DNA of 64,000 nucleotides from Escherichia coli (GTDB lineage Bacteria; Pseudomonadota; Gammaproteobacteria; Enterobacterales; Enterobacteriaceae): the NCBI RefSeq assembly GCF_011045215.1, contig NZ_CP049201.1. The stretch is one strand, 5' to 3'. The first letter of the stretch is position 1. Each line of letters opens with the position of its first letter. The position numbers were made by a program. Positions 15,001 through 18,000 of this stretch are shown here, piece by piece.

Positions 15001-18000
15001 AGATAAAACGGATTCGGCAGCACTGTTGCCCTGTATTGAACAGGCCGGGGAGGATATCCGTACCCTGCGCCAACTGCAGCTTCTGCACCAGAACCGGTGA
15101 ATCTCACTCACCAGACTTTATTCCACTGACGTCAGCCTGAACAGGGCTGGCGTTTTCGTTTATAAACCAAAAGGGAAACCGATAATGTCAGACATCACAA
15201 TCTCCCGTCCGGAAGTGGTCACCGGGCATACGGACGTTATTTGCTCAACCAGCATTCGCCACATTCTGGCTGTACGAAAGAGTACACTGTTGCAAATCGA
15301 CACACTTATCCGGCGACTGGCTGAAATATCAGCAATGACAGAAAGTATTGGCGGTAAAACTGCTCTGGACTGGGCCATGAAACAGGATTTTCGCTGCGGT
15401 TGCTGGCTGATGGAGAAACCTGAAACGGCAATGAAAGCCATTACCCGGAATCTTGACCGCGAAATCTGGCGTGACCTGATGCAACGCTCCGGGATGCTGT
15501 CCTTAATGGATGCACAGGCCCGTGATACATGGTACCGGTCACTGGAATATGATAATTTTCCGGAAATCAGTGAAGCGAATATCCTGAGCACATTTGAACA
15601 ACTGCACCAGAATAAGGATGAGGTGTTTGAGCGAGGGGTGATCAACGTCTTCAGGGGACTGAGCTGGGATTACAAAACCAACTCACCCTGCAAATTTGGC
15701 AGTAAAATTATCGTCAACAATCTGGTGAGATGGGACCGGTGGGGGTTTCATCTTATCACCGGGCAACAGGCAGATCGACTTGCCGACCTGGAAAGAATGC
15801 TGTATCTGTTCAGCGGCAAACCGATCCCCGACAACCGGGAAAACATCGCCATTCATCTGGATGATCACATCCGGTCTGTTCAGGGTAAAGAGTGCTATGA
15901 AGATGAGATGTTCAGCATCAGATACTTTAAGAAAGGCTCCGCGCACATCACGTTCAGGAAACCAGAACTGGTTGACAGGCTTAATGATATTATTGCGAAA
16001 CACTATCCGGAAGTGTTACCTTCATAATAAAGCTCTAAGAATTGATTCGATTGTGTATTTTAGCTTCATTCCCTTACGCAAAGTCATTTGGGGGTTCTTA
16101 TGGGGGTTACTCATTTATCCAACACAGATTAATCATTTAAAATCAAAACATTAACACTCATATTCGACTCCTGTGATCTTCCGCCAAAATGCCTCTTCAT
16201 ACGTTCTCCAATCCCTCGTAATACTGTCAATCCAGATATTTTATACTGCTCAATATTCAATCGGCTTCAGGAATACCTGGTCAAAGGTTTTGTGATGGAC
16301 GATGAGCAGCTGAAGAATCCGCCTGTCGGTTCTTCTGTCCTCGAACGCATCCGCGATATTCGCGCCAGTATGCGCCGTGTTTATTTGCAGGTGATTTGCC
16401 CCCTGCTGGCTCTCAGCCAACTGTATCGCCATTAAGGTGAAGATGTTGTTTTACTCGCCCCAGAACACCCTTTTTTATACGACTATTCTATTTCTTTAAC
16501 CGCTGGCGAAAAAAACTGACTATAAACTTCGCCAATAATCAGACTGCCATCAAGATTAATTTGTTCATTTAATATATCAAATCAACTTGTTTTATTTTTA
16601 CTATCAAAAATAGCTCATTGCCTTACCATAATTAATATATAAATTCGGTGATTAATTCTTAACATGCTTTTGCTAATAATCTCAATTGCTGGCCCTATAA
16701 TATTGCGCTAGCATTGCTTTCTGGTTGTATCAGCGATACTCAAAAATTCTTAATACAATGCTCATTCGACTGGTACTTATTTGTAACTCAGTTATATTTT
16801 GTCGCCCGGTGATTCAGAAGAATGCAAAAAACGGCTACCACTCCATCAAAAATACTTGATCTCACTGCCGCGGCATTTTTACTTGTCGCCTTTCTGACTG
16901 GTATTGCGGGCGCTCTTCAGACTCCTACCCTAAGTATATTCCTCGCAGATGAACTGAAAGCCCGTCCTATAATGGTAGGTTTTTTCTTCACCGGTAGCGC
17001 TATTATGGGAATTCTGGTCAGTCAATTTCTGGCAAGGCACTCCGATAAACAAGGCGACCGTAAATTACTGATTCTGCTATGTTGCTTATTTGGAGTGCTG
17101 GCCTGCACGCTTTTTGCGTGGAATCGCAACTACTTCATTCTGCTCTCAACGGGCGTACTTCTGAGTAGTTTTGCTTCCACCGCAAACCCGCAAATGTTCG
17201 CCCTCGCCCGTGAACACGCCGACAGAACAGGCCGTGAGACGGTCATGTTCAGTACATTTTTACGTGCTCAGATCTCGCTTGCCTGGGTTATCGGGCCACC
17301 GCTCGCTTATGAACTGGCAATGGGATTTAGTTTTAAAGTGATGTATCTCACCGCTGCCATCGCATTTGTTGTTTGCGGGCTGATAGTCTGGTTGTTTTTG
17401 CCATCAATACAAAGAAATATTCCTGTCGTTACCCAACCCGTAGAAATTTTACCCTCCATCCATAGAAAGCGAGATACGCGGCTACTTTTTGTGGTTTGTT
17501 CAATGATGTGGGCGGCGAATAATCTCTACATGATAAATATGCCGCTATTTATTATTGATGAACTGCATCTAACCGATAAACTGGCTGGAGAAATGATTGG
17601 TATCGCTGCCGGTCTGGAAATTCCGATGATGTTAATCGCAGGCTATTACATGAAACGTATTGGCAAGCGACTATTAATGCTCATTGCTATCGTGAGTGGA
17701 ATGTGTTTTTACGCCAGCGTACTCATGGCAACAACTCCGGCAGTTGAGCTGGAATTGCAAATTCTAAATGCCATCTTCCTTGGTATTCTCTGTGGTATCG
17801 GTATGCTTTATTTTCAGGACCTGATGCCTGAAAAAATAGGCTCTGCGACAACGTTATATGCAAATACTTCACGCGTCGGCTGGATTATCGCCGACTCTGT
17901 TGACGGAATTATGGTTGAAATCTGGAGCTACCACGCGTTGTTCTGGCTGGCGATAGGGATGTTGGGTATTGCGATGATTTGCCTGCTGTTTATTAAAGAT

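Follow-up and report, generated by a model that had tools for sequence, protein, structure and literature searches.

Islands of the tia and LEE type, which carry P4-like tyrosine integrases and are inserted at the selC gene for tRNA-Sec, are flanked by direct repeats of the 3′ end of the tRNA. In Salmonella, the gene rhuM resides in a selC island, SPI-3, which the literature places at tRNA-selC (PMC3680342), just as a first-pass annotation of the sequence described here had stated. RhuM-like proteins have been proposed as toxin or defence domains in restriction-modification loci (PMC3710099). For E. coli K-12, the curated MG1655 record (NC_000913.3) lists a pseudogene, yicT (b4653), 109 nt downstream of selC.

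The stretch of E. coli DNA analysed here, 64 kb in all and referred to below as the window, can be compared with each of these. Like the tia and LEE-type islands, it has a tRNA 3′-end repeat at a synteny break, but it covers the right end of the island only, with the integrase, selC and attL all lying outside. Beyond this repeat is a relic that derives from the same family as intact RhuM proteins (PF13310; Salmonella SPI-3 rhuM; PDC-S05), but in which only about 59 of the 252 domain positions are left and from which a functional protein cannot be encoded. With K-12 yicT it shares the same 24-nt internal deletion, the same RhuM-derived segment and the same place before setC. It differs in following an orphan att copy, whereas the K-12 relic follows the tRNA gene itself; the insertion of an island accounts for this.

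The junction is marked by the sequence TTCGACTCCTGTGATCTTCCGCCA (16163-16186, + strand), which is identical to the last 24 nt of K-12 tRNA-Sec. It is the sole match across the 64-kb window, even when 3 mismatches are allowed, and it is found in none of 100 dinucleotide-preserving shuffles. A scan of the whole window with ARAGORN detects no tRNA gene, so that this copy of the selC end is an orphan. When window 16100-16830 was used as a megablast query against 5426 complete E. coli genomes, 4686 of them gave a match. In island-free genomes, including K-12, the match begins at query base 64, equivalent to window position 16163, and extends to setC; the K-12 selC-setC spacer is 97.5% identical to window 16163-16830. 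In a three-way alignment, the sequence before 16163 is unrelated, K-12 having the body of the tRNA at this place, and from there onward it is near identical. A copy of the tRNA 3′ end thus stands exactly where similarity to an island-free genome resumes. Taken with the complete anatomy of a related island in strain 26561, the exact repeat and the break with K-12 at 16163 indicate that 16163-16186 is the attR core of a tRNA-integrated genomic island whose right end alone falls within the window. The first-pass annotation had proposed that the 24-nt repeat marks an attR-type boundary, to be checked by aligning 16100-16830 with the K-12 selC-setC region; similarity to K-12 starts exactly at the copy, and the switch to near identity falls exactly at 16163. 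Such a repeat is textbook tRNA-island anatomy and already known; what the junction adds is a clean coordinate for the border between island and backbone in the window.

To the left of the junction, the tail of the island encodes DUF3987/YfjI-like, YfjJ-like, GTPase, DUF932, RadC, YeeU, CbtA, DUF957 and DUF4942 proteins, and it is CP4-57-like in its YeeU/CbtA/DUF957/DUF4942 genes. No rhuM lies between the DUF4942 gene and the right-end motif of this island. The features on either side of the junction are collected in Table 1. The complete arrangement is seen in strain 26561, which has a tia island with tail DNA 92.8% identical to that of the window island: selC is followed by a tyrosine integrase gene, the island, the same right-end sequence, the repeat, the relic and setC, and the same 24-25 nt repeat is present at both ends, as attL within selC and as attR. 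Against any complete E. coli genome, the cargo of the window island reaches at most 92.8% identity and 83% coverage. At 2559-4162 (- strand) this cargo includes an alpha/beta hydrolase gene (Abhydrolase_3, 227 bits) and a hexapeptide-repeat acyltransferase gene; the equivalent region of the strain 26561 island has tia, a phosphoethanolamine transferase gene and a chloramphenicol acetyltransferase gene instead.

Table 1. Features at the right end of the selC island and in the adjoining backbone (window coordinates).
Feature	Position	Strand	Basis
DUF4942-domain protein, 280 aa, last island gene	15185..16027	+	PF13708 235 bits; gene order as in islands of strains 97-3250, 26561
Right-end motif (attR arm) conserved in this island family, CATTTGGGGG..TTACTCATTTATCCAACAC..	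16084..16162	+	43 nt 93% identical to sequence just after Hafnia paralvei rhuM
Orphan 24-nt tRNA-Sec (selC) 3′-end copy, attR core, island/backbone junction	16163..16186	+	Exact unique match; K-12 similarity begins here
Backbone spacer between att copy and relic, 77 nt	16187..16263	+	~95% identical to K-12
rhuM relic, in-frame part, K-12 yicT orthologue	16264..16393	+	PF13310 47.6 bits; tblastn 39/51
rhuM relic, degraded 3′ part, out of frame	16394..16467	+	DNA alignments to five intact rhuM genes
setC, first intact backbone gene past relic	16822..18006	+	ORF 394 aa; annotated setC in K-12 and other strains

The first 10-15 nt of the spacer (AAATGCCTCT..) are common to the post-selC sequence in several other genomes. 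We considered whether the spacer (16187-16262) could be the left end of an island. A multiple alignment with island left ends looked suggestive, but pairwise scores were no better than those of shuffles past the first 10-15 nt, and the idea was not kept.

The frame of 16163-16435 is free of stops from 16133 up to a TAA at 16433-16435, and could start no earlier than a GTG at 16292. Its translation matches the Pfam profile PF13310 (Virulence_RhuM) with 47.6 bits and E=1.7e-12, against a gathering score of 33.7, residues 33-88 being aligned with profile positions 50-108 of 252; about 59 of the 252 positions, or some 23% of the domain, are thus spanned. A tblastn search with intact RhuM proteins gives 39 identities in 51 positions. 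The earlier description of an open frame that lacks a start codon and resembles RhuM is therefore upheld, both by the profile score and by the search with RhuM proteins that had been suggested as a check. The RhuM-derived DNA stays in frame from ~16264 to 16393 and carries on out of frame, with weaker similarity, to ~16467, beyond the end of the span first given, 16163-16435.

The in-frame part of the relic corresponds to residues ~118-168 of the 342 in an intact RhuM. It has suffered a 24-nt in-frame deletion at ~16337/16338, which costs the residues V-P-D-Y-F-D-E-M, and its DNA is 76% identical to intact rhuM when this deletion is counted and 87-90% identical over the first 72-75 nt. The 3′ part, equivalent to residues ~169-197, has small deletions and a frameshift, the site of which is a run of 5 C at 16399-16403 where K-12 has 6 C. 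With the frame corrected as in K-12, it reads PPAGSQPTV against AADYQPSL in intact RhuM, and the last ~40 nt, to ~16467, align weakly. About 22% of the rhuM gene survives, and the complete PF13310 domain, in an intact ORF of ~340 aa with start and stop, is absent. Since both ends are gone, no start precedes the GTG at 16292, and the remainder carries a deletion and a frameshift, the relic is a RhuM-derived pseudogene and not a functional member of the family.

Might the 24-nt match and the RhuM similarity be due to chance, or belong to the present island? The features are short, and nothing else speaks for this view. With no match in 100 shuffles, an E-value of 1.7e-12 and the same relic lying directly after selC in K-12, which is without the island, we rejected this explanation and give it virtually no chance of being correct.

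In other strains, an ATG in the right end of the island, equivalent to window position 16100, reads through the att copy into the relic, yielding the 113-aa chimeric ORFs that are called 'RhuM-like cytoplasmic protein' in databases (P0003). Read-through of this kind is blocked in the window by a TAA at 16130.

The relic is the orthologue of yicT. It lies between a copy of the selC 3′ end and setC, in sequence that over 16163-16830 is near-identical to K-12. The NCBI PGAP pipeline labels the same place in K-12, 97-3250, 26561 and CFSAN051542 as "RhuM family protein, pseudogene", with an internal stop and incomplete. The relic spacer is present in at least 3605 of the 5426 complete E. coli genomes. 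The relic is thus widespread in E. coli and not strain-specific, and as a named K-12 pseudogene already assigned to the RhuM family it was already known. The first-pass annotation would have abandoned its reading had the K-12 spacer been identical throughout and RhuM similarity been lacking; the K-12 spacer is indeed 97.5% identical, but the RhuM similarity holds.

A present function for the relic region, either as a 47-aa protein read from the GTG at 16292 or as a promoter or regulatory element for setC, was weighed against simple decay. In favour of a function, the spacer is 97.5% identical to K-12, a value that no complete E. coli genome exceeds 96.6% to match over the neighbouring 25 kb; no stop interrupts the frame in the window, and gene callers often predict short ORFs here. 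In the same frame, however, stops and frameshifts differ by lineage. Where the relics of K-12 and 97-3250 have TGA and TAA, the window has ATA and AAA and so is without these two in-frame stops, and the C-run has five or six C according to lineage. Lesions that differ between lineages are as expected for a neutral relic. A scan of 15900-17000 gave no meaningful Rfam match, and a scan of the same region for promoters and terminators found no excess of such sites. The fragment is only ~23% of a RhuM domain, and the curated K-12 record treats it as a pseudogene. When the fragment was used as a protein query, it matched nothing but other fragments and short ORFs called on this same relic, the genomic surroundings of two entries, P0053 and P0059, added no information, and a literature search for yicT returned false word matches or nothing. 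To judge from its sequence, the relic is without visible coding constraint and has no present function, and we consider a functional role very unlikely.

Intact relatives are not far to seek. An ancestral peptide was reconstructed and used to scan a single genome of each species, and the best 80 rhuM loci were listed; no Salmonella locus was among them. The closest intact relatives of the relic are proteins of 342-348 aa encoded next to selC in Enterobacterales, the DNA of which is 76-90% identical to the relic. An intact relative scores 374.8 bits against PF13310, and intact RhuM also matches the PADLOC candidate defence family PDC-S05. In six of the 13 best-ranked loci examined, a tRNA-Sec gene lies upstream of rhuM on the same strand. 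Because the selC-linked loci were found by a search for rhuM, the apparent 'retention' of rhuM at selC carries an ascertainment bias. Intact rhuM genes downstream of selC and on its strand occur in E. albertii, Hafnia, Pseudescherichia, Photorhabdus, a metagenomic locus (L011) and 845 of the 5426 E. coli genomes. The 'Bacillota bacterium' MAG contig that contains L011 has, at 394-1667, a tRNA-Sec gene that shares 98% identity with selC of E. coli and, after it, a rhuM of enterobacterial type; it is probably a mis-binned Enterobacterales contig.

The surroundings of these genes carry traces of islands. In E. albertii, selC is followed by a truncated integrase gene, a truncated DUF4942 gene and rhuM. 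In Hafnia paralvei the order is selC, a C-terminal DUF4942 fragment, rhuM, the right-end motif and a partial att copy, the 43 nt after rhuM being those that match the window right end at 16084-16126. In Pseudescherichia vulneris, selC is followed by rhuM and then by an att copy with 3 mismatches; the right-end motif is loose there (73% over 79 nt). The 845 E. coli genomes, of B2 type and including SCU-124, ST131 and ST1193, have intact rhuM 52 nt after selC. In SCU-124 (L086, 5864-7700) the gene is followed by the right-end motif and then by a degenerate att copy that has lost 4 nt, and in genomes of this type a second, different rhuM relic (residues ~166-245) lies past the att copy and is followed by yicL, setC being absent. 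Carriage of rhuM by selC elements is thus seen in SCU-124, Hafnia and P. vulneris, where rhuM precedes an att copy. Another set of strains, CFSAN051542, G3/10 and EC2641, has the order YeeU, CbtA, DUF4942, intact rhuM, right-end sequence, degenerate att (GCGACTCCTGTGATCTCCGCCA), relic and setC. Degenerate copies of the selC end therefore follow intact rhuM in Hafnia, in Pseudescherichia and in two E. coli lineages; the right-end motif after the gene is clear in Hafnia and SCU-124 and weaker in CFSAN051542. The intact copies have dN/dS values of 0.03-0.15, indicating purifying selection.

Two of these arrangements carry the most weight, that of the 845 genomes and that of CFSAN051542, G3/10 and EC2641; in the latter, an island-borne intact rhuM and the older relic stand in tandem with an att copy between them. 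Both an intact homologue on selC elements and its tandem occurrence with the relic, as would be expected of successive insertions, are therefore seen. The other expected trace, an island end or a degenerate att copy from the older insertion on the far side of the relic, is found neither in the window nor in K-12: no second att copy is present in the window at up to 3 mismatches or in the K-12 locus at up to 5, and the right-end motif was not found downstream of the relic in either. Since no such motif lies distal to the relic, we infer its own island origin by analogy with the intact copies.

On this basis, the relic is most probably what is left of an earlier element that integrated at selC and belonged to the same family as the present island. 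The earlier element would have brought the ancestral rhuM, carried in such elements as cargo between DUF4942 and the right end, and would then have been almost wholly deleted, leaving the relic as a scar. The present CP4-57-like island would have entered the selC 3′ end later, by tyrosine-integrase recombination that left the attR core, with its tRNA gene and integrase expected beyond the start of the window. The DNA past the att copy is old E. coli backbone with yicT, a dead internal fragment of rhuM, and each later integration at an intact selC would shift the scar distal to the new attR. The suggestion in the first-pass annotation that the relic dates from an earlier insertion at the same tRNA is in this way supported by comparison, through intact rhuM at selC and the tandem in CFSAN051542, with the origin of the relic itself argued by analogy.

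Could rhuM instead be an ancestral chromosomal neighbour of selC, decaying in place, which islands later took up or landed beside? In the 845 E. coli genomes, in P. vulneris and in L011, rhuM follows selC by 50-250 nt with no island genes between, and the lack of an old att copy downstream of the relic is also as this history would have it. The 'solitary' genes of SCU-124 and P. vulneris, however, are followed by a degenerate copy of the selC end, accompanied in SCU-124 by a clear right-end motif, and Hafnia has the same pattern after rhuM with a DUF4942 fragment before it. Such loci are therefore best seen as miniaturised islands. In the islands that bear rhuM, moreover, it is internal to the right-end motif, with DUF4942 on one side and the arm on the other, and the same rhuM lineage is found in apparent type I restriction-modification operons (L006, L013), a setting typical of mobile defence cargo. 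An ancestral neighbour is accordingly an unlikely source of the relic. The position of rhuM between DUF4942 and the right-end arm also argues against the capture of a chromosomal rhuM by imprecise excision of an island, and that candidate was rejected.

The restriction-modification loci just mentioned deserve a note of their own. In an Enterobacter sp. (L006, 9710-11000) and in Budvicia (L013, 3355-4650), rhuM of the same lineage lies directly before a putative type I restriction R-subunit gene, a call made by reading the translated downstream sequence; RhuM-like proteins have been noted in such a setting before (PMC3710099). By their gene order, these loci suggest that rhuM alternates between restriction-modification operons and the ends of selC islands.

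What, then, does the relic signify? The selC junction and the relic represent no new kind of system. The preferred history would nevertheless account for yicT, a pseudogene that is named but uncharacterised, as a mark left by past traffic at the selC hotspot. A wider scheme is possible, although we hold it to be rather doubtful. Here the DNA downstream of selC would be a recurrent landing pad for rhuM, which would arrive as right-end cargo of islands, be kept under purifying selection as an islet of ~1.2 kb after loss of the island (examples being Hafnia, P. vulneris and E. coli of the ST131 type), and be displaced and decay on the arrival of another copy; the second relic of the B2 genomes and yicT would then be successive 'fossil layers'. 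As read from sequence comparison, the repeated delivery of rhuM to selC, its persistence there as an islet and its decay in layers may be counted a modest, incremental evolutionary observation. The distribution of rhuM islets could also guide tests of RhuM as a candidate defence or toxin gene.

Finally, the backbone beyond the relic has features of its own. Past setC its order begins setC-yicL-nlpA-nepI-adeQ. Over 16163-41000, no more than 96.6% identity to the window is reached by the best match among the 5426 complete E. coli genomes, and the island part does not exceed 92.8%. A divergent Escherichia lineage outside the complete-genome set thus appears to be the source of the window. Between ~20000 and 41000, best-match annotation assigns eilA, genes for SipB/YopB-like and IpaD/SipD-like type III translocators, and an inverse autotransporter gene (IatC/Air), and this region appears to be the eip/air cluster, adjoining selC.
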